This document shows, piece by piece, positions 14,702 through 31,377 of a stretch of 31,377 nucleotides of DNA. The stretch is from positions 1 to 31,377 of IMG/VR virus record IMGVR_UViG_3300031519_000135. The stretch is one strand, 5' to 3'. Within the stretch, counting starts at the first letter, position 1, and the number at the start of each line of letters is the position of its first letter. The notes under the pieces are model-generated. The model was not told the origin of the DNA, made no database searches, and saw only the letters and a program-made list of their open reading frames with translations. A program made the translations under genes and the position numbers. This DNA is from a virus (Duplodnaviria; Caudoviricetes).

Positions 14702-14709
14702 GATAAATA
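14702..14709 (+). promoter_or_regulatory. T4-like late promoter variant (GATAAATA)
   Basis: Immediately after the stop at 14701. It is followed by GTATAT, then an AGGGG SD and the ATG at 14735. Confidence 0.6.
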
Positions 14710-14734
14710 GTATATACACCAGGGGTAACATTAA

Positions 14735-16201
14735 ATGGCATATCAGATTGATAACTTTAGAGGGCAGTTTTTAACTACAGTTGAAGACGGGACTCTCAAT
14801 AACGCTACAGATTTAAAACTTGTAGGAAAAAACTATGCAGGATACGGTGAAGTTCAAAATGAAAATTTTATAGCATTGCTAGAAAATTTTGCAAGTTCTC
14901 AAGCACCGGGCAAACCTATACAAGGACAGTTATGGTTTGATGCTACATCTGGCGCAGAAAAATTAAAATTTTATGATGGCACTGCTTGGAGAACAGCAGG
15001 CGGCGCAGAAGTAGGACCACAACCTGGGCCTACAGGACTAGTACCAGGCGACTTTTGGTGGGATACTACTAATGAACAGTTATATGCTAAAGGTGCAGGC
15101 GGATTTGTTTTAGTTGGACCGCAAAGTACTGGCGCAGGCAACGTTACACAGATGCGCAGTTTAACCCTTAACGATAATGCATCTCCTAGTGTTGCGCATA
15201 GTGTTATTGCTGCAACCATTAATAATGCTGTAGTGTATATTATTAGTAACGACACATTTACAATAGCACTGTCTGATGCAATTGCTGGGTTTGATACAGT
15301 GCGCCAAGGCTTGACACTAGTTAATACTCAAAACGCAGCTGGCGGCAAAACAACAAGTGCCTTTAGGTTTCACGGCACAGCAACTAATGCTGACAAATTA
15401 AACGGAATCTCGGCATCAGAATATGTAACAAGTTCGGGGTCATTAAACTTTACCCAAGAAGTAGGATTTGACGATCCAGGATTAGTAGTAGGCGATGATA
15501 GCGATTTTAAAATTACAGTTGACGGTAATACTGCTACTATTGCACAATCAGTTGGTGATAGTATTTTATTTAAAGTTAATAACGGCGGCAGCTTAACTAA
15601 TTCTTTAATAGTTAAGGCACTTTCAATTGAACCAGGCACACCCACTACTACGCTAGGCACATCGTCTAATCGTTGGGACATTGTATACGCTAATACATTT
15701 GACGGAAATGCAACTAGTGCTACTGGTTTAAAACTATCAGGAACTGTTTACTACCCAACATCAGTTTCGACTGCAAGTACATTAGTAATGCGTGATGCAA
15801 ATTCTGATATATTTGCAAGAAAATTCCAAGGCGTTGCTACTAGTGCGCAATATGCAGACTTAGCAGAAGTATACTCAACCGATAAAGAGTATCCAACAGG
15901 AACTGTAATGGCAGTTGGCGGCGAATCCGAAACACGAGCTGCAAAAGTAAGTGATCATGCAATTGGTGTTATATCAGCAGAACCTGCTTATTTAATGAAC
16001 AGTACTGCTGAAGGACAAGCTATTGCACTAAAAGGTCGAGTACCGGTTAGAGTAACAGGACCTGTTTCAAAAGGAATGGCAGTATATGCTTGGCAAGACG
16101 GTGTTGCTTCTACTATTGCAAGCACAGGATTAGTTGGCATTGCACTTGAATCAAGTACAGATGTTTCAGAGAAGCTAATTGAATGCGTCTTAAAAGTATA
16201 A
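14735..16201 (+). CDS. Tail fibre protein (paralogue 3) with C-terminal intramolecular-chaperone/peptidase G2-like domain
   Basis: 488 aa with the shared N-terminal anchor. The C-terminal YADLAEVY...GTVMAVGG...IGVIS..PAYLMN...IALKGRVPVRV pattern (about 15851-16198) matches the autocleaving chaperone domain type. Confidence 0.75.
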   Translation: MAYQIDNFRGQFLTTVEDGTLNNATDLKLVGKNYAGYGEVQNENFIALLENFASSQAPGKPIQGQLWFDATSGAEKLKFYDGTAWRTAGGAEVGPQPGPTGLVPGDFWWDTTNEQLYAKGAGGFVLVGPQSTGAGNVTQMRSLTLNDNASPSVAHSVIAATINNAVVYIISNDTFTIALSDAIAGFDTVRQGLTLVNTQNAAGGKTTSAFRFHGTATNADKLNGISASEYVTSSGSLNFTQEVGFDDPGLVVGDDSDFKITVDGNTATIAQSVGDSILFKVNNGGSLTNSLIVKALSIEPGTPTTTLGTSSNRWDIVYANTFDGNATSATGLKLSGTVYYPTSVSTASTLVMRDANSDIFARKFQGVATSAQYADLAEVYSTDKEYPTGTVMAVGGESETRAAKVSDHAIGVISAEPAYLMNSTAEGQAIALKGRVPVRVTGPVSKGMAVYAWQDGVASTIASTGLVGIALESSTDVSEKLIECVLKV

Positions 16202-16233: not shown

Positions 16234-17214
16234 ATGGCAACAGTAAGCGTCGGCGACTTAATCACAGCAGCCCAATATAATGATTTGCAAATAAGAGTAC
16301 AGACACTTTTAGGTAACGGGGCTGCAGATTACGGATACGGCCAAACAGTGCAAAGTCAAGCAGTTGCAATCGGAACTGTTATTCTTGCAAGCCATATGAA
16401 TGACCTGTATGCTGATATTGTAAAATGTTATCAACACCAGCAAAATGCCAATCCTACTACAATTGCTCAGTTGGTTGTAACTAACTTAATTGGCGCAAAT
16501 GCTTCAACTGATCCTAGCTCTACTATTAAAGGCTATAACGATTACAATGTTATAATTGGTACTTTAGAATCCGGTAGATTAACTGCTTCATCACATATTA
16601 ATCAATCAACTGTAGAATCTAAAATTTCAAGTGCTCGTAGTGTACTATGGGGCAATAATCCAGACGTTATTACGCACGAAGTTAGTGTTACATATCCAGG
16701 AGCATACGCAACAGTTAATACCAACGGTACAGCATATGCTTCTGTGTCAGGTGCTGATCATATGAGACACTGGTTTAACGCAGGTGGCCAAATAAGATTT
16801 AGTGCTGCACTTGCAGGTGGCTCCGGAGCAAAATATAACGACTGGAATACAATACTTACTAACATGGGGACAATTGTATTTGGTTATACTGGCACTACTG
16901 CAACGGGTACAGGAACTACTTCTGCAATTGGTTACGTTGATCTTACTACATCATATCAACAAATATTTATTAAAGCAGGCAGCGGTGTATACGCTGAAAA
17001 CGATTATGTTGTTAGTGCTAAAAAAGTAGGCACTACAGCAATTTATTTTAAAATTGACTTCCGTGATGATGACGCAGGAGACCAAACAGGACTTGGTGCA
17101 GCAGTTGACGAAAACGTAAGTGGAACACTTACTAGTACCGTAGGGCAGCTTCGTCCAAGCGGTTCTTATGTTTCTATTATTACTCCAACTTACGCAAACA
17201 CACTCGCATTATAA
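16234..17214 (+). CDS. Virion structural protein (tail-associated, function unknown)
   Basis: 326-aa Thr/Gly/Ala-rich ORF with its own late promoter and strong SD. It is the last gene of the structural block. Confidence 0.65.
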   Translation: MATVSVGDLITAAQYNDLQIRVQTLLGNGAADYGYGQTVQSQAVAIGTVILASHMNDLYADIVKCYQHQQNANPTTIAQLVVTNLIGANASTDPSSTIKGYNDYNVIIGTLESGRLTASSHINQSTVESKISSARSVLWGNNPDVITHEVSVTYPGAYATVNTNGTAYASVSGADHMRHWFNAGGQIRFSAALAGGSGAKYNDWNTILTNMGTIVFGYTGTTATGTGTTSAIGYVDLTTSYQQIFIKAGSGVYAENDYVVSAKKVGTTAIYFKIDFRDDDAGDQTGLGAAVDENVSGTLTSTVGQLRPSGSYVSIITPTYANTLAL

Positions 17215-17225
17215 TCAGATAATAC

Positions 17226-17254
17226 TTGACAACACACTCCTATGACTATATAAT
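17226..17254 (+). promoter_or_regulatory. Consensus sigma70-type promoter
   Basis: TTGACA at 17226-17231, a 17-nt spacer, and TATAAT at 17249-17254: a perfect match to both hexamers with optimal spacing. Confidence 0.85.
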
Positions 17255-17281: not shown

Positions 17282-17629
17282 ATGGATGAACGTTTAAGCA
17301 AAGCGTTAGATTTCTCAAATTACATGGTTACATTAAATAATCAAAAACGAGTAATTAAAGAACAATACGAACAAGATTTAATATTTTATTATAACGGTGG
17401 ACAGTTTACTCTTACTCAAGAGTTTATTAGTTTTTGTCACACATTAATATCATTAGATCAGTCAACTGCTATTCTAACAGATGACAACAGTACTCCTATT
17501 GAAGTTAATGATTTAGCAAACTTTACAATAGACGTAACTAGTCAATACTTTGAAGCATCTAATAAGTATCACGCAGAATATGTAAAACTAAAAACAACAA
17601 GAAGTGTTGAAGGAATTGTAAAAGTATGA
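17282..17629 (+). CDS. Hypothetical protein, possibly tail-fibre-assembly (DUF4376-like)
   Basis: 115 aa with SD AGGAG 8 nt upstream. The YNGGQF...LTDDNSTPIEV..L..F pattern loosely resembles fibre-assembly chaperone domains, a weak assignment. Confidence 0.5.
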   Translation: MDERLSKALDFSNYMVTLNNQKRVIKEQYEQDLIFYYNGGQFTLTQEFISFCHTLISLDQSTAILTDDNSTPIEVNDLANFTIDVTSQYFEASNKYHAEYVKLKTTRSVEGIVKV

Positions 17630-18480
17630 CGCAAGGCGTAATATTATTTGCAAGAAACAATCCGCAAGTTGATTATGTTAAGCAAGCTCATTTTCTTGCA
17701 AAACGAATTCGTAAATATTTAGATCTTCCTACTACTATTGTTACAGATAGTGAAGAATACTTAATAAATGCATATCCTGATTACACTGATGTGTTTGACA
17801 ACGTAATATCTATTCCTTGGAAATTAGGAACTAGTATGAAACGGTATCACGACGGTGCTATTACACAAAAAAAACTAGATTTTAGAAATGATGCAAGGTG
17901 TATGGCATACGATCTTTCGCCTTACACTGAAACACTGCTATTAGATACTGATTATGTTGTTTCGGATTCTATATTTAAAAATTGCTTTACTCAAAACGGA
18001 AACTTTTTAATCTATAAAGATGCATATGATTTAGCAAACTTTAGAGATTATTCAGAATTTAAATATATTTCAGATACTAGTGTAGATTTTTATTGGGCTA
18101 CTTGTGTATTTTTTAGAAAAACAGAAGTAAATAAAATATTTTTTGATCTAGTTGCACATATACAAGATAACTGGCAGCACTATAACAGTATATTTCAAAT
18201 AAACTCCTCTGTATTTAGAAACGATCATGCATTCAGTATTGCTATTCATATTATGAACGGTTACCAATCAGGACCTTTTGCAAATATTATGCCTGGAAAG
18301 TTATTTTATACTACAGATAAAGATTTATTAGTTAAACTTAAGGATGAACAATTTTTATTTTTAACGGAAAAAGAAAAACATTTAGGAGAATATGTTCCTA
18401 TTAAATTTGCAAACTCCAGTGTGCATGTTATGAACAAATTTAGTTTAAATCGAGTAATTGACGAGGCCCAAAATGACTAA
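17626..18480 (+). CDS. GT-A fold glycosyltransferase (GT8/GT71-like)
   Basis: 284 aa, ATGA overlap. DXD motif in SPYTETLLLDTDY, a later RND motif and a C-terminal VHVMNK His. Confidence 0.7.
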   Translation: MTQGVILFARNNPQVDYVKQAHFLAKRIRKYLDLPTTIVTDSEEYLINAYPDYTDVFDNVISIPWKLGTSMKRYHDGAITQKKLDFRNDARCMAYDLSPYTETLLLDTDYVVSDSIFKNCFTQNGNFLIYKDAYDLANFRDYSEFKYISDTSVDFYWATCVFFRKTEVNKIFFDLVAHIQDNWQHYNSIFQINSSVFRNDHAFSIAIHIMNGYQSGPFANIMPGKLFYTTDKDLLVKLKDEQFLFLTEKEKHLGEYVPIKFANSSVHVMNKFSLNRVIDEAQND

Positions 18481-19321
18481 AGGTTACTTAATGCTTGCAC
18501 AAAACAATTCTGTAGATGACTATGTTCTTCAGGCCTGCGTGTGTGCAATGAGTATTCTTGCACACAATCCAAATTCAAAGATATCACTAGTAACTAATGA
18601 TGCAGTAGATACGATTTATTTAGAATTATTTGATAATATTATCCCCATTCCGTGGACTGATTCAGCAGCTGATACTGAATGGAAGGTCAAAAATCGCTGG
18701 AAGTTATATCATGTAACTCCTTACGATGAAACTATTGTCCTAGATACAGACATGTTAATTTTAGAAAACATAGATCACTGGTGGAATTTTTTGTCGAGGT
18801 ACGAGTTATACTTTCCAACATCTGTTTACACTTATCGAAAAACAAAGATAGTTGATACATATTATAGAAAAGCATTCGTCTCAAATAATTTGCCTAACAT
18901 ATATGTAGGATTTCATTATTTTAAAAAATGCGACAGAGTTCATGAGTTTTATAAATGGGTAGAAGATATATCTAATAACTGGGAATTATTTTACGGACAA
19001 TACTGCAAAACAAATTATCCTAAAAGAATGAGCATGGATATAACATGTAGCATTGCTGTTAAAATTATGAACTGTGAAAACGAAATTACTAATAAAGTTG
19101 TTAAAAATCCTACCTTTGTTCATATGAAACCGTATATTCAAGATTGGAACGATATTAAAACACGTTGGCAAGACAAGGTAGGCACTTATTTAACTCCTAA
19201 TTTAAAGTTAATGATAGGCAATCATCTACAGTCGGGTGTGTTTCATTATACCGAGAACGATTTTATTACAGATGAAATTGTAGAAATTTATAAAAATTAT
19301 ATTGGATTAAGTAATGAGTGA
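18473..19321 (+). CDS. GT-A fold glycosyltransferase (paralogue of upstream gene)
   Basis: DXD motif in TPYDETIVLDTDM and FVHMK. The ATG at 18473 (SD GAGG at 18463-18466; MTKGYL aligns with the paralogue's MTQGVI) is preferred over the TTG at 18458. Confidence 0.7.
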   Translation: MTKGYLMLAQNNSVDDYVLQACVCAMSILAHNPNSKISLVTNDAVDTIYLELFDNIIPIPWTDSAADTEWKVKNRWKLYHVTPYDETIVLDTDMLILENIDHWWNFLSRYELYFPTSVYTYRKTKIVDTYYRKAFVSNNLPNIYVGFHYFKKCDRVHEFYKWVEDISNNWELFYGQYCKTNYPKRMSMDITCSIAVKIMNCENEITNKVVKNPTFVHMKPYIQDWNDIKTRWQDKVGTYLTPNLKLMIGNHLQSGVFHYTENDFITDEIVEIYKNYIGLSNE

Positions 19322-19934
19322 AGAAATAATCTGGCAAGCTAATATAATTGAAGTAGAATATATCTATAGGGTATACTTTGATCCTGAAACTACTGTAGTA
19401 ATGCGAGTATCGAGTAATTATGAAGCTGATACAGATTACCCAAGTTTTGAAGTCAACTATTATGATATTGAAGACATTGTATCTGGCGCCGAACCAATAG
19501 CAAATTGTAAGGTGTTTTTTAATATCAAAGCTAAACAATATGAACTTGTAAAAAATACAATTGCACCAGTAATTTATACTGTTTCTCAAGAAATTTATAA
19601 ATGCAAAAAAATTAAAAATGCTGATATTCAAATTATACAAGATATAAAAAATACATGTTGGAAAATTTTAATGAGTAACGAGTTAAAATATAAATTAGCA
19701 GCTCAACGGGTTTCTGTTACAAATATTAAAGATAATCAAATTACCTTTAGTGTGACGGCAAAAAATAATCCTAATATTTTATATCGATTATTATCATTTC
19801 CGTTCAGTGATCTACTTGACGATAATTATGTTGTATTAGATTTTAAAGATCAATATGAGTTTGACGGATTGCCAATAAGCGTGTATACTATACAAAAGTT
19901 TGATACATATTCTTACGAGATGATACATGAGTAA
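19314..19934 (+). CDS. Hypothetical protein
   Basis: 206-aa ORF with 8-nt start/stop overlaps at both ends and no recognisable motif. Confidence 0.7.
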   Translation: MSEEIIWQANIIEVEYIYRVYFDPETTVVMRVSSNYEADTDYPSFEVNYYDIEDIVSGAEPIANCKVFFNIKAKQYELVKNTIAPVIYTVSQEIYKCKKIKNADIQIIQDIKNTCWKILMSNELKYKLAAQRVSVTNIKDNQITFSVTAKNNPNILYRLLSFPFSDLLDDNYVVLDFKDQYEFDGLPISVYTIQKFDTYSYEMIHE

Positions 19935-20856
19935 AAAATTTAAAGTTGTCGATTACGATATTATATATTTGTCGTATGATGAGCCTAATGCAGAAAAAAA
20001 CTATGCAGATTTGTGTAGTAAAGTACCTTGGGCTAAACGTGTACACGGTGTTAAAGGCAGTGATGCAGCACACAAGGCCTGCGCAGAAATTAGCGAAACT
20101 GATCGTTTTATTACAGTTGACGGTGATAACGTTATTGATCAAGACTTTTTAAATCAAGAAATTGATTTTCAAGAATATTCTAATTTAGAACGTAGTGTTA
20201 TTAGCTGGTGCGGTCAGAATGTAATTAATAATCTTATGTACGGAAACGGCGGCCTAAAATGCTGGCCAAAGGAATATGTACTTAACATGCGTACACATGA
20301 AAACGCCGATCCTAACAATGGACATGCTCAAGTAGACTTTTGTTGGGATGCAAACTATATACAGATGACTAGTTGTTATAGCACTGTTCATAATAACGCC
20401 ACAGCACAACAAGCATGGCGTGCAGGTTTCCGCGAAGGTGTTAAAATGGCACTTGATAGAGGCATTCGACCTAGTAAACAAGATTTTTTAAACGGACATT
20501 GGAAAAATCTCCATATGCTGTATGTTTGGAATATGATAGGTGCTGATGTAAAAAACGGCCTTTGGGCAATCTACGGAGCAAGAGAAGGTCTTTACAAAAC
20601 AATGTGTACAGACTGGGACTATGTGCAAGTACGCGACTTTGAATATTTAAATAACTTATGGAATAACAAATATAGTAAAGTTACCGAAGATATGTTATGT
20701 TATGAAATTATGGGATTAGGTGAAACACTAATTTATGAACTTGGTATTCCTATTGCATCTTCTCCTTTAGATGCACAACAAAGTAAGTTTTTTAAAACAT
20801 TATATCAAAGCCCTCCTGGCAGACGTAAATCACAACTTATAATCGACCAGGAATAA
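19927..20856 (+). CDS. GT-A-like (GT2-like) glycosyltransferase/nucleotidyl-sugar transferase
   Basis: 309 aa with YDIIYLSYDEP...RVHGVKG..AAHKACA...FITVDGDN (DXD after a hydrophobic strand). Paralogous to 29918-30595. Confidence 0.6.
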   Translation: MSKKFKVVDYDIIYLSYDEPNAEKNYADLCSKVPWAKRVHGVKGSDAAHKACAEISETDRFITVDGDNVIDQDFLNQEIDFQEYSNLERSVISWCGQNVINNLMYGNGGLKCWPKEYVLNMRTHENADPNNGHAQVDFCWDANYIQMTSCYSTVHNNATAQQAWRAGFREGVKMALDRGIRPSKQDFLNGHWKNLHMLYVWNMIGADVKNGLWAIYGAREGLYKTMCTDWDYVQVRDFEYLNNLWNNKYSKVTEDMLCYEIMGLGETLIYELGIPIASSPLDAQQSKFFKTLYQSPPGRRKSQLIIDQE

Positions 20857-20860
20857 CTAT

Positions 20861-22423
20861 ATGAAAAAAGATAATATTAATTTTATTAAAGATAAAAATG
20901 GTGAACTAACTAGCGATCCCATCAATCTTGAAAATGTACAAACTCTATTAAATTCTACTGGTTGCGGCTTTTGTCTAGCAAAATTTACACAAGTTACTAT
21001 GCATCTTGGAACAGGGTATGTACACAGTTGCCACCATCCAAAGATGCATAAGATTTCTGTTGAAGAAATTGAAAAAGATTATAGGGCACTATTTAATACT
21101 AGGCATTTAAAACAAGTGCGCAAAGAGATGCTTAATAATCAAAAGCCTTCAGAGTGTGATTATTGCTGGCGTATAGAAGATGACAAAAATCTAAGTGATC
21201 GCACTTTTAAGAGTAGCAAGCGGTTTGCGTTTGACTACCATGACGAGATTTCACAGTATAAGGGAGATGAAATTATTTCTCCTACTTACTTAGAAGTTAG
21301 CTTTTCTAATGTATGTAATATGAACTGTCTATACTGCGGTCCCGAGTTTAGCAGTAAGTGGGTTGAAGACTTAAAACAAAACGGTCCTATAAAGGTCTTA
21401 GAAAACACAACAAAAGAACGCTGGGTCCAAGGCTGGCAAGATCTTGATAATTTAAATATTCCTAATAGGGAGTACAATCCGTATATTAATGCGTTTTGGA
21501 AATGGTTTCCTGAAGTTTATCCTAAATTAAAAACATATCGCATTACAGGCGGCGAGCCTCTAATGAGTAAAGAAACATTTCGAAGTATGGATTGGCTTGC
21601 TGCAAACCCAAATCCAGGACTAGACTTTAGTATTAATACAAATCTAAGTGTACCAGATAAACTATGGAATACATTTATAGAAAAATTAGTAAAAATTAAA
21701 GACACAACGGGCGTAACCGTGTTTACAAGTATCGAAGCCTGGGGCAAACGTGCAGAATACTTGCGCCGCGGACTAGACGTTGATGTATTTAAAAAACGTT
21801 ACGAACAATTAGCACAACTTGGCAATGTAAAAGTTGTTACTATGGCAGCATATAATGTACTAAGTATTTCTAGCTTTCAACAATTTCTAGAATGGCAACT
21901 AGAAATGAAACAGACATACAACTATAACAGTGCAGTATTATGGTGGGAAGATAACACATCTTATAAATTTAGAGAAGGCCCTAGCAATAGAGAATTAAAG
22001 AGCATATCACACTCGCATATTATTCCAATAGGACTTGATATAGCCTATGTGAGGCATCCACCGTTTCTTGACGCACAAATCTGTACAGACAAAATGACAC
22101 AAGAGTATATGATTCCTACAATGAACTTTATGGCAAATAATACTGTAGATAACAAATGGTCTATGCACACTTCGTTTGAATTGAGTGAAATGTATAAATT
22201 AAAAAATATTACAGAACATAAAATGTCTGTAACACATTCTGTACATCCTGGAACAGAACACTATTTTAAAAAGATAACGCATCCTAGAGCAGAGTTTTTT
22301 GACTTTATTAATACAAAGGACCGTCGCGACGGCACTAACTTCTTAGAAGTATTTCCAGAAATGGAAGAATTTTACGAAGAATGTAAAACTGCTAACGACT
22401 TAGTACGAGCTAAATCGATATGA
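20861..22423 (+). CDS. Radical SAM enzyme with N-terminal twitch-like Cys cluster
   Basis: CNMNCLYC (21314-21337) and ITGGEP motifs. The N-terminal FC...SCHH...CDYCW residues are candidate auxiliary Fe-S ligands. Confidence 0.9.
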   Translation: MKKDNINFIKDKNGELTSDPINLENVQTLLNSTGCGFCLAKFTQVTMHLGTGYVHSCHHPKMHKISVEEIEKDYRALFNTRHLKQVRKEMLNNQKPSECDYCWRIEDDKNLSDRTFKSSKRFAFDYHDEISQYKGDEIISPTYLEVSFSNVCNMNCLYCGPEFSSKWVEDLKQNGPIKVLENTTKERWVQGWQDLDNLNIPNREYNPYINAFWKWFPEVYPKLKTYRITGGEPLMSKETFRSMDWLAANPNPGLDFSINTNLSVPDKLWNTFIEKLVKIKDTTGVTVFTSIEAWGKRAEYLRRGLDVDVFKKRYEQLAQLGNVKVVTMAAYNVLSISSFQQFLEWQLEMKQTYNYNSAVLWWEDNTSYKFREGPSNRELKSISHSHIIPIGLDIAYVRHPPFLDAQICTDKMTQEYMIPTMNFMANNTVDNKWSMHTSFELSEMYKLKNITEHKMSVTHSVHPGTEHYFKKITHPRAEFFDFINTKDRRDGTNFLEVFPEMEEFYEECKTANDLVRAKSI

Positions 22424-23637
22424 TAGAATTAGCATATGACTGGATAGGTCCTGAAGGACCGTGGCCGAACGGACAAAATCTAGACTTATTAGCTTCGCCC
22501 AATAATTATAAACATGCACAATATGCTATTAACAATAACATCTATAATCTTGAAAGCAGACGTCATCCTTTTACTTACTCTAAAATACAATCAATTTTAG
22601 GTAACCGCAATACAATACAAAAACATATATTGCAGTGCAAAGGAAAGTTTGTATACGAACTAACACCCTTGCTCAAGCCATACCAATGGACGGATACAAC
22701 ATTTGATAACGTAAGTAGTGTAGCAATACAAGCACAGCAAACTGGAAAATGTTTATTTGTTATTAATGACATGAATGAAGGGTATTCAAATAAAGAATAT
22801 AATTTCTTTGAAAATATCCATCTTCAAATTGAAAAATATTTGTTAAATCCTATTAATGTTATGTATATTACAATGAATTCTGTTGCTAAAACTGAATATG
22901 CAAAATGGGCAGCTCGCAATAATATTTATAAACAAATTAATATACAAGAAGTTTATCTATACGAATATGCAGATAATAAAAATTTAGACATTGCTAATCC
23001 TTCAACCCATTTTATATGTTTAAATAGGCAACCAAATCCTTTAAGGCAATGTTTAATTTATGAACTATGGCGCCGCGATTTACTAAAATACGGTCATGTT
23101 AGTATGCCATCTCCGAGTGATAAATTAGACTTTAATTTTGATAAAGATAATCTTAAACTTTTTGATATAGATGATAGTCAATGGGATGAATTTTTAAATA
23201 CATTACCTTATATTGCAGATGGTAGGAGTTTTTTAGACCAAACATGTAACACTAACTCAATAACAGACTTTTATTTTGATAGCGTATATAGTGTTATTAC
23301 AGAAAATACGTTAGGTGATATTGATTGTGTTAAATTATCTGAAAAGACTTTTAGAAGTTTAGGAAATTATTGCTTACCGTTGTATATGTATAGTCCGGGC
23401 ATAGGACAGTCGCTAACTAAATTAGGGTATGAAGTTGATGCAGATATCATTATAAATGACGCTAAGAGATTTTGGGCATTGATTAATAAGTTAGAACGCA
23501 TATGCCAAATAAATATTAAACAGTTACATAAGAAAACTAAAAAAATTAGAATAAAAAATAACAAGAATTTGTTAGCTCGAGAAAAATTAACGATACTGCA
23601 AACACGGAGAGATATCCAAACATGGCTAGCTACTTAA
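22420..23637 (+). CDS. Putative glycosyltransferase (GT10/GT-B-like C-terminus)
   Basis: 405 aa. The C-terminal YSVITEN......LSEKTFRSL....LP resembles the GT10 fucosyltransferase nucleotide-sugar-binding motif (FEN....Y.TEK). It sits directly upstream of an NDP-sugar epimerase. Confidence 0.45.
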   Translation: MIELAYDWIGPEGPWPNGQNLDLLASPNNYKHAQYAINNNIYNLESRRHPFTYSKIQSILGNRNTIQKHILQCKGKFVYELTPLLKPYQWTDTTFDNVSSVAIQAQQTGKCLFVINDMNEGYSNKEYNFFENIHLQIEKYLLNPINVMYITMNSVAKTEYAKWAARNNIYKQINIQEVYLYEYADNKNLDIANPSTHFICLNRQPNPLRQCLIYELWRRDLLKYGHVSMPSPSDKLDFNFDKDNLKLFDIDDSQWDEFLNTLPYIADGRSFLDQTCNTNSITDFYFDSVYSVITENTLGDIDCVKLSEKTFRSLGNYCLPLYMYSPGIGQSLTKLGYEVDADIIINDAKRFWALINKLERICQINIKQLHKKTKKIRIKNNKNLLAREKLTILQTRRDIQTWLAT

Positions 23638-24515
23638 TAACAGGCAGTAGTGGATTTTTAGGACAAGAAACTGCAAAACGATTAATACAGCAAGGGCATA
23701 ATGTTGTTGGAGTTGATCTTATTCCAGGAAATTATACTTCGCATGTTCAATCTATTGAGACATTTGATATATCGATTTCGTACGATGCAATATTTCATTT
23801 TGCTGCATATGTAAAAGGACGAGAAGTTATCGAAAATAGTTTTTTGTCAATTGCAAAAAATATAGAAATTGATAGAATAGTATTAGAGAAGATTCTAAAA
23901 TATCCTCCTAAACGGTTTGTGTATCCAAGTAGTAGCGCAGTATATCCGACTACGTTTCAACAAACTAATCATAAACCATTATCTGAAATTGATATTGATT
24001 TTTCTAAAAATAACATCGGAGTAAGTGATCATCTATACGGCTGGTCCAAATTAACTACTGAACGTATGTTATGGGAAATAAAGGATAAAATTAATACTAG
24101 TATTTCGATAATACGTCCATTTAGTGGATACGGCCCAACACAGAGTTTAGACTACCCTATTCCTAATCTTATTAACATTGTAAAAAATAATCCAAGTAAT
24201 ATAGAAGTTTGGGGAACAGGCGAACAAACTAGAGACTTTGTTTATATTGATGATATTATTGATACACTTGAATGGTGTTTAACTGATACTGCTAAATTTA
24301 GAGTTGTTAACATAGGAACAGGTGTAGCAACTAGTTTTAATGAAGTAATACAATTAGTACATTTATTAATATACAATAAATCAGCACAAACAATTAATAA
24401 TATTTTAGAGAAACCAGTAGGGGTATTAAATCGTTATTGTGATCCTGTGCTCCAACAACAACTTGGGATTCATCCTAAAATTTCTTTAGAGCAAGGCTTA
24501 AAATTAATGTTATGA
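23622..24515 (+). CDS. NAD-dependent nucleotide-sugar epimerase/dehydratase (extended SDR)
   Basis: ITGSSGFLG Rossmann motif, HFAA, SSSAVY, catalytic YGWSK and GTGEQTRDFVYIDD. Confidence 0.92.
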   Translation: MASYLITGSSGFLGQETAKRLIQQGHNVVGVDLIPGNYTSHVQSIETFDISISYDAIFHFAAYVKGREVIENSFLSIAKNIEIDRIVLEKILKYPPKRFVYPSSSAVYPTTFQQTNHKPLSEIDIDFSKNNIGVSDHLYGWSKLTTERMLWEIKDKINTSISIIRPFSGYGPTQSLDYPIPNLINIVKNNPSNIEVWGTGEQTRDFVYIDDIIDTLEWCLTDTAKFRVVNIGTGVATSFNEVIQLVHLLIYNKSAQTINNILEKPVGVLNRYCDPVLQQQLGIHPKISLEQGLKLML

Positions 24516-26299
24516 AAAATATATATTTCTTTCAAGTTAACTTTCCCATAGGATTTGGCAAATTTCAAACACATTGGCTTCCTTATGCAGTTGCCCGCTT
24601 GTGGAGTTATGCTAGAACAGACTTGTATATCAACAGTACCTATATTGCAAAAGATTTTGTATTTGAACGATTACCTATAGATAACTTTGTAGAAAGTATT
24701 GATAGTATTGAAATTGCTGCGTTTAGTTCGTATATCTGGAATGAAAATTATAATTTAAAATTAGCTAAAAAAATTAAAGAAAAATTTCCTAATTGTTTAA
24801 TTGTATTTGGCGGCCCGCAGGTACCTGATAATACTGCACAATTTCATAAAGACAATCCGTTTATTGACCACACGTTTCACGGTGAATCAGAGTACTTGTT
24901 TAAGGAGTTTCTTTTAGATAACAATAAACCAAAGCGTATAATAGGGCCACGGGTAGATAATTTAGATACACTTTGTAGTCCATTCACTGACGGAATACTT
25001 GATAGTATTGTTAACAAGCATAAAACTAAAAACTTTAGCATAACACTTGAAACCAACAGAGGATGTCCATATGCTTGTACTTTTTGTGATTGGGGTAGTT
25101 TAACATTCAACAAAGTTAAAAAGTTTAATACTAATTTAGTTAAACAAGAAATAGAATGGATTAGTAAGAATGGTATTAAGTTTGTTGATGTAGCTGATGC
25201 AAACTTTGGTATATTTAAAGATAGAGATTTTGAGTTGTTAACTTACATGGTTGAACAAAAACAAAAATACGGATATCCTGAAACCTACAGTTTTAATTGG
25301 CAAAAAAATAGCACCGAGCATACGTTAAAAATGGTTGAATATCTTACTAATAATAACAGTGCAAGAGGGTTTACACTAAGCGTTCAAAGTATGTCAGACG
25401 AAGTACTAACAAACATAAAAAGAAAAAACATGGAAGTTAGTAATTTTCAAAATATAATGCAACAATGTAACATAAAAAACATACAAACATATACTGAGCT
25501 AATTTTAGGTTTGCCAGGAGAAACATATGAATCTTGGATAACTGGTATAGACAAACTGTTAACAGCAGGGCAACATAATAATATTGAAGTATGGCTGTGT
25601 CAACTGCTAGTTAATGCTGAACTCAGTAATAAAAAAAGTTTAGAAAAATATAATATACAAACTTCTAATATAAAAAATTATATCAGTGGTGATACAAGCG
25701 AAGAAGGTCAAGAAGGTATACAAGTTATTAAAAGTACTAATACGTTGTCGTATACTGAATTATTAGATTGTTATATGTATAGCTGGATGATTACTAATTT
25801 TCATAGCTTTGGTTGGACACAAATTATTAGTAGATGGTTGTATGTTACTAACGGTATACCCTACAAAGAGTTTTATAATAATTTGTTAGAAAAATTAAAA
25901 CATCATCCATTCTATAAAGAAGTTAGACATGATGTTGATTACGCATATCAAACTGGTCTTATACAACAAAAGGGCATGCATTATTATATTGCAGAATCGC
26001 AAAAAAAATTGCATATGAATAGAGAAGATACATTTGCATTTATTAAGGATATGAATTATGATATACCGGACGACATTTATAATTTTACCAATTTGTATGT
26101 GACCAACTTTAACAATCCAGTAAATACATCAGTAGAGTTTGATATCTCTGTTTGGAATATTATCAACAACATTGGTAGTGATTGCACTACATATACTTTC
26201 AAATGGACTGAAGATGTTACCGACGAACAGGAATATTATGATAGTTTTTATTTTAGACGGAGAAAGGGGTGGGGTAAATGCATAGTAACATTATTGTAG
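24512..26299 (+). CDS. Cobalamin-binding radical SAM enzyme (class B type)
   Basis: N-terminal B12-binding-like domain (FSSYIWN...LAKKIKEKFPNCLIVFGGPQ...GESE), ETNRGCPYACTFC (Cys at 25064-25087), DANFG and ELILGLPGET. Confidence 0.88.
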   Translation: MKNIYFFQVNFPIGFGKFQTHWLPYAVARLWSYARTDLYINSTYIAKDFVFERLPIDNFVESIDSIEIAAFSSYIWNENYNLKLAKKIKEKFPNCLIVFGGPQVPDNTAQFHKDNPFIDHTFHGESEYLFKEFLLDNNKPKRIIGPRVDNLDTLCSPFTDGILDSIVNKHKTKNFSITLETNRGCPYACTFCDWGSLTFNKVKKFNTNLVKQEIEWISKNGIKFVDVADANFGIFKDRDFELLTYMVEQKQKYGYPETYSFNWQKNSTEHTLKMVEYLTNNNSARGFTLSVQSMSDEVLTNIKRKNMEVSNFQNIMQQCNIKNIQTYTELILGLPGETYESWITGIDKLLTAGQHNNIEVWLCQLLVNAELSNKKSLEKYNIQTSNIKNYISGDTSEEGQEGIQVIKSTNTLSYTELLDCYMYSWMITNFHSFGWTQIISRWLYVTNGIPYKEFYNNLLEKLKHHPFYKEVRHDVDYAYQTGLIQQKGMHYYIAESQKKLHMNREDTFAFIKDMNYDIPDDIYNFTNLYVTNFNNPVNTSVEFDISVWNIINNIGSDCTTYTFKWTEDVTDEQEYYDSFYFRRRKGWGKCIVTLL

Positions 26300-26904
26300 T
26301 TGCGCAGCCCCGTAGTGGAGGAGTAGTTACTACGCAAGTACTGAATAAAATTTATCCGTTGCACAAAAATCTATATGAACACTTTAATTCTCATAGATAC
26401 GGATATAATATAAATGATCAACTAACCTCTGCACGCGACCAACAACCGTTTATTGTTAAAGTGAGTTATTTTGATTTAAAAGATGTATTTGACCAATTAA
26501 CTACCTTTGATGCTATATGGTATCATGTACATCGATTGAATCCTGTTGAGATGGTGTGCAGTAGTTATTTGTCATCGGTTACAGGCATATTTCATTTAGA
26601 TCAAGATAACCTACATATACCGTTAACAGATGTTGTTGTAGATAAAGATTTTGTGCAATGGTTTTTTTCTAAAGAAAATCCTGGAGGCTGGCACTATAAC
26701 TCTGCCAAAAATATTCCTTTTTTAAACAGTATAGATTACAAACAAGTAACGTATGACGATCAAACAACTTCATCAGATATCTACAAGCAACTAACTTGTG
26801 TTAACAAACAAATAACACTTGGTATACAAAAACTATATCCGAACAAAGATACTACTATAAAAAATTTAAAACAAGTAGCAGAATGGGTAATAGAATATGT
26901 TTAA
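26278..26904 (+). CDS. Sulfotransferase-like P-loop protein (Stf0-like)
   Basis: N-terminal VVAQPRSG resembles the 5'-phosphosulfate loop and HRLNPVEMVCSS resembles the 3'-phosphate-binding R..P....S motif. The loop is degenerate (PRSGGV instead of PRSGS/T). Confidence 0.5.
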   Translation: MHSNIIVVAQPRSGGVVTTQVLNKIYPLHKNLYEHFNSHRYGYNINDQLTSARDQQPFIVKVSYFDLKDVFDQLTTFDAIWYHVHRLNPVEMVCSSYLSSVTGIFHLDQDNLHIPLTDVVVDKDFVQWFFSKENPGGWHYNSAKNIPFLNSIDYKQVTYDDQTTSSDIYKQLTCVNKQITLGIQKLYPNKDTTIKNLKQVAEWVIEYV

Positions 26905-27658
26905 AAATAAAAGTACTCTAGTAGTTTTTGGAGACAGTAATGTTTGGGGAGCAGAAATGGCAAACTGTCCTGAATTACAAAGAGATTTCAAAACTATAGT
27001 CTACGATCCTAGTAATATTGAAATTTGGCCCCACCATATTAGATATAGTTTTTCAGGATTACTTGCTGAAAGACACGATATGAAACTTTTAAATTTAAGT
27101 ATACCAGGATCTAGCAACGATACAATCTTTAGAAGAATAAATAATTTTTTACAAGGACAATATCCTGTAGACCTCGACGAGTGTTTTGTTATGATTTTTT
27201 GGACATCTGTTGAAAGAAGAGAATTCCGTCAGCCAGTTACATATGAAGACAAATACTTTAATTATTCTCCTACCTGGGCCCATCTTTATCGCGAAAGCTC
27301 TAAAATAAAGTTTCACAAAATTTATTCTAGATTTATTTTTTCTGAGGAACACGATCTAATAAAAACTTTTAATTATATATATTCTATAAACGGTTTGTTG
27401 TGCTATAAAGGAATTGAATTTGTCCAAGGTTATTCATTATTTAAAAACGAATTATACGAGTTAGTAAAAGAACATAAGTTACCAAATTTTATATCTAACT
27501 ATTTTGAAGATTCTATTCATAGTATCGCAGCAGTAGCTGCCGATCACCGGCCCTGTCCTAATCTTTATCAGTTTACAGGTAGTCATCCTACAGAACTAGG
27601 TCATGTAGCTATTGCAGATAGATATGAACAACTGCTTAAACAAAGACAGGCAACATAA
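26897..27658 (+). CDS. SGNH/GDSL-fold protein (esterase or O-acyltransferase)
   Basis: VFGDSNVWG block I, NLSIPGSSN block II and C-terminal GSHPTELGH. Confidence 0.75.
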   Translation: MFKNKSTLVVFGDSNVWGAEMANCPELQRDFKTIVYDPSNIEIWPHHIRYSFSGLLAERHDMKLLNLSIPGSSNDTIFRRINNFLQGQYPVDLDECFVMIFWTSVERREFRQPVTYEDKYFNYSPTWAHLYRESSKIKFHKIYSRFIFSEEHDLIKTFNYIYSINGLLCYKGIEFVQGYSLFKNELYELVKEHKLPNFISNYFEDSIHSIAAVAADHRPCPNLYQFTGSHPTELGHVAIADRYEQLLKQRQAT

Positions 27659-27661
27659 ATT

Positions 27662-29101
27662 ATGAACGATGATTATAAAAAATATAAAGAAGATGTACTA
27701 GACAGCAAAAGCGAAAGTTTTTGTGGCGCAAAATGGTACAATGCAACAACTTGGTTAGGTAGCGGCACTACTACTAGTTGTCATCATCCTCCTGCACACA
27801 AAATTCCTTTAGAAGAAGTAGAAGCAGATTATACTGCTATTCATAATACTGCCCATAAAAAAGAAATGCGCCGCCAAATGAAATGCGGCGACCGGCCGGG
27901 CGAGTGTGAGTACTGCTGGAAAGTAGAAGACATGGGCAAGGATGCAGTAAGTGATCGTGTTTTTAAAAGTATTATATATAGTGACAAAGATTTACAGAAA
28001 GCATATGACTTAGATCATAATGCAAATGTTGATTTAAAAACATTTGAAATAGCCTTTGATAGAACCTGTAATCTAGCGTGTAGTTATTGCAATGCTAGTT
28101 TTAGTACTACTTGGGCTAAAGATATTAATACTAATGGCCCGTACGAAAACTTAGTTAGTGACGGAGCAGGAGCGTTTAAGCAAAACGGCGACTGGACGCA
28201 GCCTTACAAAAATGATGAAGATAATCCGTATATACAAGCATTTTGGAAATGGTGGGACAATGGATTATCAGATAGTTTAGAAGAGTTACGTATTACAGGC
28301 GGTGAACCTCTTATGTCGGGTAATACTTGGAAACTATTTGATTGGTTTGAAAAACAAAACTCTAATATGCGATTTGCTATTAATAGTAATCTTATTGCAA
28401 AAAATAGTATCATTGACAAGCTAGTATCGAAAGCAAAAAATATTAATAATTTTAGTATATATACTAGTTGCGAAGCAACAGGTAAGCAAGCAGAATATAT
28501 TCGCGACGGTCTTGATTACGATCAATGGAAGTCTAATTTAGTTCGTATGTTATCAGAAACAAATGCACAGATGAACATAATGATGACTATTAATAGTTTA
28601 TGCTTGTTTAGTATTACAGATTTCTTAGATGAGATATACGAACTTAAAGGCAAATATAGAGATAATCAATTAGCAGTAAGTTTAAATTTATTACGTTTTC
28701 CAAGTTTTCAAAGTCCATTAGCATTACCATTACATCTTAAAGATTACTGTTATAATAATCTAAATGATTGGTATCAAAAAAATAAAGACGGCGAACTTTG
28801 GCATGCTCATGAACTTGCAAGTATTGAACGGTTAATTGATTACTTAGTTACTGTTGATTCTCCACATAGGCGCACTAGTAATCCTATAACATTATGGCGC
28901 GACTTCAAAACATTTTATCAACAATATGATATTAGAAGAAACAAAGACATAAAAGTATTTCCAAAAATACTTACGGATTGGGTTGATTCTATTCCTAATA
29001 CGGTTAAGGAAATCAATGACCTTGCAATACAAGAAGGGTGGGTATTGAATCCAGATAATAAAAATATAAGCGACCCTTTAGCAATTTATACTCAGGATTA
29101 A
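27662..29101 (+). CDS. Radical SAM enzyme with N-terminal twitch-like Cys cluster (paralogue of 20861-22423)
   Basis: CNLACSYC (28067-28090), ITGGEPLMS, N-terminal FC...SCHH...CEYCW, and NPYI.AFWKW shared with the paralogue. Confidence 0.9.
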   Translation: MNDDYKKYKEDVLDSKSESFCGAKWYNATTWLGSGTTTSCHHPPAHKIPLEEVEADYTAIHNTAHKKEMRRQMKCGDRPGECEYCWKVEDMGKDAVSDRVFKSIIYSDKDLQKAYDLDHNANVDLKTFEIAFDRTCNLACSYCNASFSTTWAKDINTNGPYENLVSDGAGAFKQNGDWTQPYKNDEDNPYIQAFWKWWDNGLSDSLEELRITGGEPLMSGNTWKLFDWFEKQNSNMRFAINSNLIAKNSIIDKLVSKAKNINNFSIYTSCEATGKQAEYIRDGLDYDQWKSNLVRMLSETNAQMNIMMTINSLCLFSITDFLDEIYELKGKYRDNQLAVSLNLLRFPSFQSPLALPLHLKDYCYNNLNDWYQKNKDGELWHAHELASIERLIDYLVTVDSPHRRTSNPITLWRDFKTFYQQYDIRRNKDIKVFPKILTDWVDSIPNTVKEINDLAIQEGWVLNPDNKNISDPLAIYTQD

Positions 29102-29105
29102 AAAA

Positions 29106-29918
29106 ATGTATAGCAGTATTCAAACATCAAAATGCACACTTGATACTATTTGCATGCAAAATGTTCAAGTACATAGATGTGCATCAAGGACAAAAAATAT
29201 AGGCAAGGAGTTCGTTACTGATCACGTTGGCCGTCCTGAAAAGTTTTTTAATAAAGATCCTTGGCTGTATAAAATTAACAAATACGGGTTTCGAGGAGCC
29301 AACTGGAATTTTAAGCCTAGTATTGCAGTATTTGGGTGTAGTAATATATTTGGTATAGGGGTCAAAAAAAGTGTTGCTGATGTAATGGCAGAAACACTAA
29401 ATCAACCAGTTCATAATTTAGGAATACCAGGCGGTAGTTCGACGAATATCATAAAAACATTTGCAAGTTTTGCAAATTTGCATCCTATGACAGATGCAAT
29501 TATATCGCTTCCTGCTATACAACGAGTATTTCAACCAGAAATAAATTATGATGCTAACGCCTGGATCTGGCAAAATAAAATACACTGGGATGGCGAAACT
29601 GATTATAAACTTATGAAAGCAATTGACCGCGTATGGAAAAATGATGTAACAATATCTCATATTGTTGATTTGATTGACTGGGCTGAATTAATAGCAAAAT
29701 CAAAAGGGATTAATCTTCATTGGACTAGCTGGAGCCCGCATAATCCATCATCAACTAATAAAAATATCGATTTTTACATAGGAGACTTATCTAGTAATTT
29801 TTTTATGTGGCCCGATACAAAAAATGAAAACAATGGTGCTCGTGATGCAATGCACCCAGGACCTGCGGTAGTAAAAGATCTAGCATCAATTTTTATTAAT
29901 GCCATAGAGAATGTTTAA
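29106..29918 (+). CDS. SGNH-fold protein
   Basis: AVFGCSNIFG, NLGIPGGS and C-terminal ARDAMHPG (DxxH). Confidence 0.7.
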   Translation: MYSSIQTSKCTLDTICMQNVQVHRCASRTKNIGKEFVTDHVGRPEKFFNKDPWLYKINKYGFRGANWNFKPSIAVFGCSNIFGIGVKKSVADVMAETLNQPVHNLGIPGGSSTNIIKTFASFANLHPMTDAIISLPAIQRVFQPEINYDANAWIWQNKIHWDGETDYKLMKAIDRVWKNDVTISHIVDLIDWAELIAKSKGINLHWTSWSPHNPSSTNKNIDFYIGDLSSNFFMWPDTKNENNGARDAMHPGPAVVKDLASIFINAIENV

Positions 29919-30595
29919 TGTACGATATTGCATTCATAAGTTATCAAGAACCTAGTGCCGACGCTAACTACGCTGCACTAAAGGCACGATTTCCTATGGC
30001 CAAACGTGTACACGGAGTTAAAGGAATACATCAAGCACACATTGCTGCTGCTAAAAAATGTTTTACTAAGATGTTTTGGATTGTCGATGCTGATGCACAA
30101 TTAGTAGACACGTTTAACTTTGATTATAAAGTAGACGAATGGAATTTAGAAACTGTACATGTATGGAGCAGTATAAATCCAATCAATAACTTAGTATACG
30201 GATATGGCGGCATAAAATTGTTTCCACGTAAACTAACAATTGATATGGATTTAACAAATACCGATATGACTACAAGCATATCAAATAAGTTTAAAGCAAT
30301 GGAACAAATATCAAATATTACTGCATTTAATACAGATGAATTTAGTACATGGCGTAGTGCATTTAGAGAATGTGCAAAACTTGCAAGTAATATAATTGAC
30401 AGGCAGAATGTAGAAGAGACTAACACAAGATTAGCAGCATGGTGTAATGCCACTGGCAGAGATCAACAGTTTGGAGATTACGCTATTCAAGGTGCAAGAG
30501 CAGGTCGAAAATACGGTATTGATAATCAAGGTAACATTGAAGCACTAAAAAAAATTAATGACTTTGAATGGTTGAAAGAAAAATTTAATGAGTAG
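29918..30595 (+). CDS. GT-A-like glycosyltransferase (paralogue of 19927-20856)
   Basis: YDIAFISYQEP...AKRVHGVKG..AH...FWIVDADA, N.IN.L.YG.GG.K..P and WR.AFRE, all shared with the 309-aa gene. TAATG overlap with the upstream gene. Confidence 0.6.
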   Translation: MYDIAFISYQEPSADANYAALKARFPMAKRVHGVKGIHQAHIAAAKKCFTKMFWIVDADAQLVDTFNFDYKVDEWNLETVHVWSSINPINNLVYGYGGIKLFPRKLTIDMDLTNTDMTTSISNKFKAMEQISNITAFNTDEFSTWRSAFRECAKLASNIIDRQNVEETNTRLAAWCNATGRDQQFGDYAIQGARAGRKYGIDNQGNIEALKKINDFEWLKEKFNE

Positions 30596-31208
30596 ATTAC
30601 TAGCATTTGGGTGTAGCTATACATACGGTGAAGGATTATGGGATTGTTTAAATATCGCTAGCAATCCAGGCTTTAAAGCAAAACACCCTAGTAAGTTTGC
30701 TTGGCCTACTTTATTAGGTAAAAATCTAGATAGAAAAAATATAAATCTTAGTCAACCTGGCTGCTCAAATCGTTATATAGCTAACGAAATACTAAACACA
30801 CACATTCAAAAAGATGATATAGTAGTGGTGTTATGGACTCATCCTGATAGATCTATTATATTTGGCAAGGAAAATTATACAAATCAACACATACACGCTA
30901 CAAGAAATAATAAAATGAATAGAGCATACTTTAAATATATATATGATCCTTATAATTGTTTTTTAGAATCACAACACTCTATACATTATACAAATTTGTA
31001 TCTCAGTAGCAAAGGAGTCACTATTTATAATTTTCAGGCTGAACATAGATTGTCTATACCTGCTTATGCTACTCCGGACTGGAATATAGTTAAAGTTATT
31101 AGTCAACACTTATACTATATAGATATGGCAGCCGATGGTGATCATCCGGGCATTGAATCACAAAAGCTAATAGCACAAGATATGGAACGATGTATTAGAG
31201 AGAATTAA
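30588..31208 (+). CDS. SGNH-fold protein
   Basis: AFGCSYTYG, NLSQPGCSN and C-terminal DGDHPG (DxxH). Confidence 0.7.
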   Translation: MSRLLAFGCSYTYGEGLWDCLNIASNPGFKAKHPSKFAWPTLLGKNLDRKNINLSQPGCSNRYIANEILNTHIQKDDIVVVLWTHPDRSIIFGKENYTNQHIHATRNNKMNRAYFKYIYDPYNCFLESQHSIHYTNLYLSSKGVTIYNFQAEHRLSIPAYATPDWNIVKVISQHLYYIDMAADGDHPGIESQKLIAQDMERCIREN

Positions 31209-31377
31209 ATTTGCCTACTAGCATGTAACGTGTACCACGAGTATCTTCTACTTCTTCTTCAAATAGAACTTCTGCTCTTTCAGGTAGTTGGTCTTTAAAC
31301 TCTTGTAAGCTGTTAACACAATTCACATGCCCTTCAATACCGAACATATTATTTGACTGAAATGCAAAATAACAATT
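31195..31377 (-). CDS. C-terminal fragment of a convergent gene, possibly a SAM-dependent methyltransferase-like protein (absent from the ORF track)
   Basis: The minus strand is open from the window edge: NCYFAFQSNNMFGIEGHVNCVNSLQEFKDQLPERAEVLFEEEVEDTRGTRYMLVGKFNSL*, with the stop at 31197-31195. It overlaps the 3' end of the last SGNH gene by 14 nt. The functional call is from recalled resemblance only. Confidence 0.55.
   Translation of the reverse strand, partial: NCYFAFQSNNMFGIEGHVNCVNSLQEFKDQLPERAEVLFEEEVEDTRGTRYMLVGKFNSL

Follow-up and report, generated by a model that had tools for sequence, protein, structure and literature searches.

What does a phage do with fifteen consecutive genes for glycan-building and radical S-adenosylmethionine (SAM) enzymes that follow directly behind its tail-fibre genes? 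The question is raised by a 31,377-nucleotide fragment (the window, positions 1 to 31,377) of phage record IMGVR_UViG_3300031519_000135, which comes from an uncultured marine giant (jumbo) phage of the T4-like kind. In the window, a truncated gene for a virion protein of 3,400 aa is followed by g1, three genes of fibre-like type and str5, and then by a block of 15 open reading frames (ORFs), labelled A to O (Table 1). This operon is real, widespread and uncharacterised; islands of its kind are already in print, while its fixed core is newly described. An earlier note on this DNA had left the target open among fibres and baseplate, host surface and phage DNA. The present evidence leans towards a virion protein: we give about an even chance to the reading that the operon serves the cytoplasmic glycosylation of a virion tail protein, most likely str5.

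A fixed core and a variable cassette

The 15 ORFs occupy positions 17282–31208 of the plus strand and are spaced by 4 nt at most or overlap by 1–22 nt, just as the earlier note had described. The 15 genes do not form a single co-conserved unit: only A-B-C-D-E-radical SAM and then N are fixed, and the content after the first radical SAM gene is a hypervariable cassette. Conservation was followed in 132 loci with B (redundant ones included), collected in two IMG/VR scans and one GTDB genome scan. In 126 of these, the cultured soil Ralstonia phage RsoM2USA included, str5 and then A directly precede B, and the exact order B-C-D-E-twitch radical SAM recurs in 77; the others are cut short, contain an insertion or have an unrecognised gene at the D position. 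The core is syntenic across related phages.

RsoM2USA is the sole match to B and N among 50,697 phage records, and it carries the order str5-A-B-C-(184 aa)-E-radical SAM-N with 31–44% identity for the matched genes. Its ORF351 is regarded as the D homologue by position and size, BLAST having found no match. In the same genome, ORF199–203 (123467–129043), about 90 kb from the glycosyltransferase (GT) core, encode a carbamoyltransferase, three SGNH-motif proteins and an N-terminal-twitch radical SAM that is 56% identical to L. The closest IMG/VR relative, G006 (275 kb, 77% complete according to CheckV), has a family B polymerase, terminase and sheath, as well as matches to T4-like gp15 and gp32. 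It shares A to K in order, after which its island extends to ~42 kb with 10 of its 11 NF033640 radical SAM genes. In the window, a convergent minus-strand ORF at 31195–31377 closes the operon, hence its island is much shorter than the 42-kb island of G006. The clade comprises an estimated ~880 IMG/VR stretches and 2,342 protein clusters. Phage-like contigs with the fibre-plus-core block have been binned in metagenome-assembled genomes (MAGs) of many unrelated phyla (L117, L119, L120, L122, L124-L129, L132, L133, L136, L140, L146), therefore the MAG names are no evidence of a host.

The block might simply be a landing zone for auxiliary metabolic genes that have no common product, as unrelated insertions, e.g. 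of uroporphyrinogen decarboxylase, and the separation of the RsoM2USA tailoring genes from the core would suggest. The fixed order, the overlapping start and stop codons and a DxD motif that stays invariant across 30–70% identity argue against this, and we consider it highly improbable.

Association of the core with str5

Upstream of the operon, the structural genes group the phage with jumbo myoviruses of the RaK2, PA5oct and Atu_ph07 type. The fibre-like proteins have a Collar domain (E 6.5e-14) and a Ser plus Thr content of 19–22%. The str5 protein matches PA5oct gp360 (HMM E 3e-46), and gp360, similarly to the PA5oct homologues of the giant protein, g1 and the fibres, is noted in the PA5oct record as a virion protein with electrospray ionization tandem mass spectrometry (ESI-MS/MS) evidence. 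A PDB sequence search with the str5 profile gave nothing useful. In RsoM2USA, ORF355 is a str5 fused to a fib-type anchor domain, and it stays by the core although the other fibre genes have moved away; in the passages of the RsoM2USA paper that were found, ORF355 is absent from the ten gel bands named and the core genes are not discussed (PMC8504454). Tandem duplication of str5 is seen in several relatives (L059, L069, L072, L075, L078-L080).

Distance correlations among 28 non-redundant phages out of 53 are suggestive of a closer link, in that the divergence of B and C appears to track str5. The distances of B correlate most highly with those of str5 (rho 0.70, vs 0.26 for A, 0.54 for C, 0.65 for D, 0.23 for E and 0.47–0.58 for the fibres), and str5 is the best partner of B in 77% of 300 subsamples. 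The distances of C also correlate best with str5 (0.56), whereas those of E do not (0.29).

Predicted glycosyltransferases of the core

B, C, E and N are predicted to be GT-A-like glycosyltransferases at the fold or profile level, and this assignment mostly holds. The four GT-A proteins counted in the earlier note stand as a modelled fold for E and as assignments by homology for B, C and N, while Pfam GT families were unmatched in all four. Each of them carries a DxD motif, which is invariant in the B, C and E/N families. B and C are paralogous (hhalign 99.6%), and their placement near GT8 rests on a partial match of the C profile to glycogenin, with E 1.8e-4 across ~100 positions; the B profile matched neither GT8 nor glycogenin, and its PDB sequence search gave nothing useful. 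PF11051 was found on 3 of 120 C homologues among those listed.

The E model (pLDDT 87) has a GT-A fold. SunS/ThuS and the PBCV-1 capsid GT rank first in Foldseek (SunS E 7e-5), STIV A197 is also among the fold neighbours, and a structural comparison (VIA) aligned 139 residues to B4GALNT1 with Z 10.3 and rmsd 2.9, with many ties. A PDB sequence search with the E/N profile returned nothing useful. Protein-acting GTs are among the nearest solved structures: glycogenin in the case of C, and the SunS/ThuS, PBCV-1 capsid and STIV A197 enzymes in that of E. N is a short paralogue of E, and in relatives it often comes back behind the cassette.

Two core genes without enzyme motifs

The earlier note left A and D unexplained. 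D is modelled with two domains, of which the C-terminal one resembles Ig/FN3 folds (Z 3.6–5.6) and the small N-terminal one shows a weak likeness to the Mu fibre chaperone 5yvq_B (Z 4.4, rmsd 2.3, 55 residues), the sole row for this domain in the top 50. Foldseek with the D model found nothing at E 0.001 in the PDB, and three unnamed phage proteins only in BFVD. For A, the nearest named cluster in the Atlas (0.89) was the DUF4376 family (PF14301), a domain that occurs in demonstrated fibre chaperones according to passages of two papers (PMC7289586, PMC10579305). Profile tests did not confirm this candidate: PF14301 was unmatched in 35 A members by Pfam, hhalign gave 0.1% against 120 close, mostly Pseudomonas-type DUF4376 members, and hhalign against a single DUF4376 member was also negative.

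Predicted cytoplasmic location and transcription

No membrane segments were found in the 15 ORFs, where hydrophobicity reaches a maximum of 1.33; a value of 1.9 is reached by 6 of the 833 ORFs scored in 80 loci plus the window. As none of the ORFs has a hydrophobic stretch of membrane length, the chemistry is predicted to be cytoplasmic.

The operon has its own promoter, and either a sigma-70 or a TAAATA class seems to serve. In the window, a perfect sigma-70 consensus at 17226–17254, overlooked in the earlier note, precedes A. Sigma-70-type sites lie before A in 47 of 82 relatives (background 18/67) and the TAAATA motif of the structural genes precedes the operon in 29 of them, with both classes in 8/82 and neither in 14/82. 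TAAATA precedes g1 in 54/54 cases and the internal gene E in 0/67. Contigs from four marine metatranscriptome runs of one study span most of the region (28/30 bins in X1); such RNA-library contigs prove neither transcription nor its strand or level, and the libraries may include DNA. Some contigs end near 17230 and others start near 17290, a weak hint at most.

Soluble enzymes and a host-type promoter would also be compatible with a defence against restriction in which the phage DNA is hypermodified by a tailored glycan. DNA glycosylation by GT-A enzymes occurs in other phages, and some cassettes include 2-oxoglutarate (2OG)-Fe(II) oxygenases. We nevertheless regard this as improbable: no TET/JBP or hydroxymethylase was matched among the 15 ORFs (the window being 31 kb of the genome), the operon is fixed to structural genes while the G006 polymerase, thymidylate synthase, FolE and DNA methylase lie elsewhere, and a hypervariable capping with sulfate, acyl and methyl groups would suit surface glycans better.

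Radical SAM and tailoring genes

The three radical SAM enzymes reported by the earlier note are confirmed as F, I and L, all of which have CxxxCxxC, preceded in F and L by an N-terminal cysteine cluster. The B12-binding domain then ascribed to I falls below the cut-off (PF02310, 17.9 vs 32.1 bits), as does its match to the KedN5 family (E 5e-67, 226 vs 700 bits). F and L pass the cut-off of NF033640, a family that neighbours E/N-type GTs both here and in Bdellovibrionota; we know of no reaction for it. Oxidation or epimerisation of sugars is the chemistry of such twitch radical SAMs as BtrN and NeoN.

The NDP-sugar epimerase seen earlier is H, with a clear PF01370 match, whereas the GT10-like and sulfotransferase-like proteins (G and J) hold at the profile-profile level only and are unmatched in Pfam. 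The alignment of G to GT10 (PF00852 motif; 76%, E 2.2e-5) covers 62 columns only, there was no Pfam match in 32 G members, and a PDB sequence search with the G profile gave nothing useful. J aligns with Stf0 (PF09037) over 152 columns (90%, E 1.6e-6) and has a loop RSGG vs RSGS in the family alignment, while its Pfam and PDB searches were without a match. Reversed and unrelated hhalign controls for G and J gave ≤2%. The motifs of the three SGNH proteins in the earlier note, G(D/C)S plus a C-terminal xxHP, are present in K, M and O (GCS in two of them), with weak Pfam matches below the cut-off. Pairing of SGNH and twitch radical SAM genes was considered and rejected as not significant (35/58 adjacent vs 29.7 ± 3.4 shuffled, p 0.07).

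Cassettes of relatives contain UDP-glucose dehydrogenase, GDP-mannose dehydratase-like, DegT aminotransferase, carbamoyltransferase, methyltransferase and 2OG-Fe(II) oxygenase genes. The GT folds and these sugar-enzyme swaps support the earlier proposal that the phage makes its own chemically elaborated glycan, though "methylated, acylated, sulfated" can be drawn only from sub-threshold family matches.

Several further observations were made in relatives. DAHP/KDO8P synthase-family and uroporphyrinogen decarboxylase genes lie inside the fixed core of some (L011:12488-13258; L038:10849-11619, 12617-13555). Outside its island, G006 has sugar-supply genes (L199:2956-5216, L207:4683-5438), including an epimerase, a UDP-glucose dehydrogenase-like gene, a eukaryote-type phosphomannomutase and a cytidylyltransferase-mannose-6-phosphate isomerase fusion, as well as a gene for GTP cyclohydrolase I that neighbours a radical SAM gene (L198:13976-15817), possibly part of a deazaguanine pathway apart from the island. 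The far island end of another relative, G007 (L210:2690-19299), carries six genes of the Asp/Asn beta-hydroxylase family and one of the tryptophan-halogenase family.

Table 1. Annotated features of the window, with the main evidence for each
Feature	Position	Strand	Assignment	Evidence
Giant protein	3..10205	+	giant virion structural protein, 5'-truncated, baseplate region	phrog_10938 E 3e-125; PA5oct homologue gp355 noted ESI-MS/MS
g1	10239..10841	+	conserved structural gene of RaK2/PA5oct/Atu_ph07-like jumbo myoviruses	93 phage records; PA5oct gp357 noted ESI-MS/MS
fib1-3	10845..16201	+	three Ser/Thr-rich fibre or tail-pin proteins	shared N-terminal anchor; mutual paralogues
str5	16234..17214	+	by homology a virion protein, rich in Ser/Thr (21%); candidate acceptor	PA5oct homologue gp360
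Promoter	17226..17254	+	sigma-70, perfect consensus TTGACA-17-TATAAT	single 12/12 site among 93 found
A	17282..17629	+	first gene, fixed, 115 aa, without enzyme motif; perhaps a fibre chaperone or adaptor	unconfirmed Atlas lead
B	17626..18480	+	predicted GT-A/GT8-like glycosyltransferase, core	invariant D107-x-D109; paralogue of C
C	18473..19321	+	predicted GT-A/GT8-like glycosyltransferase, glycogenin-like N-terminal half, core	glycogenin E 1.8e-4; invariant D91-x-D93
D	19314..19934	+	two-domain non-enzyme, core	model pLDDT 87; Ig-like C-domain, small N-domain
E	19927..20856	+	predicted GT-A fold glycosyltransferase, unnamed family, core	model fold; cellular homologues in Bdellovibrionota, roseobacter chromosomes
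F	20861..22423	+	N-terminal-twitch radical SAM (NF033640), core position	292 bits vs cut-off 170
G	22420..23637	+	GT10-like protein (fucosyltransferase-type motif), variable cassette	hhalign 76%, E 2.2e-5; Atlas lead 0.81
H	23622..24515	+	NDP-sugar epimerase/dehydratase	PF01370 E 1.6e-35
I	24512..26299	+	radical SAM with probable B12-binding domain, methyltransferase-like	PF04055 E 6e-13; PF02310 E 0.0028
J	26278..26904	+	putative Stf0-like sulfotransferase-fold protein	hhalign 90%, E 1.6e-6; loop PRSGG
K	26897..27658	+	SGNH-motif protein	GDS and GSHP; GDSL E 0.022
L	27662..29101	+	second N-terminal-twitch radical SAM (NF033640)	295 bits vs cut-off 170; 56% identical to RsoM2USA ORF202
M	29106..29918	+	SGNH-motif protein	GCS and AMHP; DUF6473 E 5.5e-4
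N	29918..30595	+	predicted short GT-A paralogue of E	E 1e-27 to E; 43% to RsoM2USA ORF348; own clade
O	30588..31208	+	SGNH-motif protein	GCS and GDHP; paralogue of K, E 3e-6

Cellular relatives

E, N and the radical SAMs are common to phages and Bdellovibrionota chromosomes. A quick tree, which does not give the direction of transfer, splits E and N deeply into two clades, and phages as well as Bdellovibrionota are represented in both; tandem E-N genes, often with twitch radical SAMs, occur in several Bdellovibrionota chromosomes. The B/C profile was unmatched in all five of the Bdellovibrionota genomes that hold E/N and NF033640 genes, while RsoM2USA matched as the positive control. A-B-C-D have been seen only in phage contexts, judging from these five genomes and the loci seen, GTDB having been scanned with E/N only.

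One Bdellovibrionota island (G598:C1:745000-775000; L265-L267) has 13 N-terminal-twitch radical SAMs along with two genes of the Asp/Asn beta-hydroxylase family and one each for a UDP-glucose pyrophosphorylase and a methyltransferase, and several of its genes have homologues in phage islands. Flagellin, pilin, Wzx and Wzy were unmatched among the proteins scanned in Bdellovibrionota islands, which do not reveal the target. In bacteria, E/N and radical SAM genes are found among GT2/GT4 genes; in Photorhabdus (L188:8774-16291), an N-type homologue is surrounded by GT4 and GT2 genes, an ABC exporter and HlyD, and a SPASM radical SAM is upstream.

Such islands bring to mind a division of labour in which the GT core glycosylates a virion protein, while the radical SAMs and the cassette enzymes, rather than tailoring a glycan, modify side chains of proteins or make a small glycosylated metabolite. 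Consistent with this are the sheer numbers of N-terminal-twitch radical SAMs, with 10 copies in the 42-kb G006 island and 13 in the 30-kb Bdellovibrionota island, and the presence in these islands of a halogenase, desaturases, nitroreductases and many genes of the Asp/Asn beta-hydroxylase family. In addition, the top Foldseek matches of E are peptide S-glycosyltransferases, and the metabolite option has been raised for a cyanophage cluster in passages of PMC7824862. The window cassette, however, is sugar-centred (H, G, N), and the core showed neither an exporter or peptidase nor a short, conserved ORF for a precursor, which makes this division of labour rather unlikely.

Comparison with known systems

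Fibre-adjacent islands of GT and radical SAM genes have already been published and read, without test, as lipopolysaccharide (LPS) modifiers; the ordered core and its link to str5 are new. The host recognition cluster of pelagimyophages and cyanomyophages, described in passages of PMC7029224 as hypervariable, non-syntenic and located between VrlC and gp14, is read there as serving O-chain modification. It resembles the present operon as an island beside tail fibres in marine T4-like phages, with GT8-type GTs, NDP-sugar enzymes and radical SAM cassettes. In contrast to that cluster, as far as those passages describe it, the operon has an ordered, syntenic core of unnamed GT families and two non-enzymes tied to str5, and its lineage of jumbo phages has RsoM2USA, PA5oct and Atu_ph07 as relatives. 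Clusters of jumbo cyanophages are likewise read as LPS modifiers (passages of PMC7824862), and PMC5332604 mentions 12 radical SAMs in one T4-like genome.

In line with these published readings, the operon could edit glycans of the host surface (LPS core, O-antigen or capsule precursors) on the cytoplasmic face, rely on host flippases and block superinfection. It is established that soluble GT8 and GT10 enzymes act on LPS precursors. The sigma-70 promoter of the window and of 47/82 relatives, the occurrence of DegT, UDP-glucose dehydrogenase and a DAHP/KDO8P synthase-family protein in cassettes of relatives, and the GT2/GT4 surroundings of E/N and radical SAMs in bacteria also fit. Nonetheless, no flippase, polymerase or Gtr-type membrane protein was found among the 15 ORFs. 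Moreover, the core order is the same from marine phages to a soil Ralstonia phage, although differing host LPS would need different first enzymes, and both the fixed str5 link and the non-enzymes A and D would be left unexplained. We therefore judge host-surface editing to be unlikely. GtrABC serotype conversion offers a comparison as a phage-borne glycan modification, but it needs a membrane flippase and a membrane GT, which were not found here (hydrophobic maximum 1.33, 15 ORFs).

Virion glycosylation has its own precedents. In mycobacteriophages it is reported to target the capsid and tail tube (Freeman et al. 2023, as cited in passages of PMC12619734 and PMC12801897), and by description only that system is similar in its phage-encoded GTs and in the cytoplasmic decoration of virion proteins proposed here. 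Moraphages, aquatic jumbo phages said to have no cultivated member, have four putative GT orthogroups in their core genome, for which passages of PMC12619734 list virion glycosylation as one option. By description only, the number of these putative GTs recalls the four predicted here, and they could be identical with B, C, E and N. The PBCV-1 capsid and STIV A197 systems share virus-encoded GT-A enzymes that are fold neighbours of E. PBCV-1, STIV and mimivirus differ in being eukaryotic or archaeal viruses, and the likeness is at the fold level only (6–16% identity). In systems of this type, donor synthesis and capping genes cluster. To our knowledge, no radical SAM or sulfotransferase tailoring occurs in mycobacteriophage virion glycosylation. 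The earlier statement that no characterised phage pathway has such a composition agrees with our literature searches, although islands of a similar kind have been described; no characterisation of this core was found, most subscription papers being outside the search coverage.

Proposed mechanism and its weighing

In the proposed glycosylation of str5, the phage-restricted A-B-C-D would handle the acceptor, with the GT8-like pair B and C priming it with sugars in the cytoplasm, while A and D present the acceptor as non-catalytic chaperones or adaptors. The cell-shared E, the twitch radical SAM and N might then add further sugars and edit them by radical chemistry. In the cassette, H would supply donors, and caps could come from GT10-like transfer (G), C-methylation (I), sulfation (J) and O-acyl handling (K, M, O). 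The outer part of the glycan chain would thus vary between phages, and cassette swapping would alter the virion glycan type, as O-antigen loci do for cells, with effects on adsorption or shielding. All of these chemical steps are what we infer, next to an observed gene order, core and cassette layout, E fold and family membership of F, L and H.

Several points weigh against str5 glycosylation. Neither product nor acceptor has been observed. The correlation of str5 with fib3 (0.67) is nearly as high as that with B, and the latter is suggestive only, because it compares linked genes in loci that had been chosen by way of B. Eleven PA5oct-like records carry str5 yet match neither B nor N, and A and C were not found in PA5oct, thus str5 does not need the core. 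The DUF4376 lead of A was not upheld in profile comparison, the Z of 4.4 for the D N-domain lies within background, and the tied fold neighbours of E include polysaccharide transferases and nucleotidyltransferases. Furthermore, E, N and the radical SAMs operate in cells without virions, and the DAHP/KDO8P synthase-family gene inserted in the core of relatives fits LPS or capsule chemistry. The many Asp/Asn hydroxylase-family genes and the halogenase of longer islands make a metabolite or the side chains of proteins possible substrates of the radical SAMs, and the sigma-70-type promoter in the window and 47/82 relatives points to earlier, separate transcription.

A broader proposal, which we hold only tentatively and think somewhat less probable than its contrary, is that this large clade of jumbo phages from water and soil has a complete, host-independent protein glycosylation system, in which a phage-specific GT8-like priming pair with two fibre-chaperone-like adaptors would load a tail protein, and an exchangeable cassette with a radical SAM family of as yet unstudied function would give rise to an O-antigen-like "virion serotype", a counterpart of the fibril glycans of giant viruses. 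RsoM2USA, cultured and with a minimal core, and the cultured PA5oct group, which has str5 without the core, make the question directly testable. If the core decorates the virion, the untested reading of fibre-adjacent GT islands as LPS modifiers would change for a very common clade, and the NF033640 radical SAMs, together with two unnamed GT families common to predatory bacteria, would gain their first substrate context.

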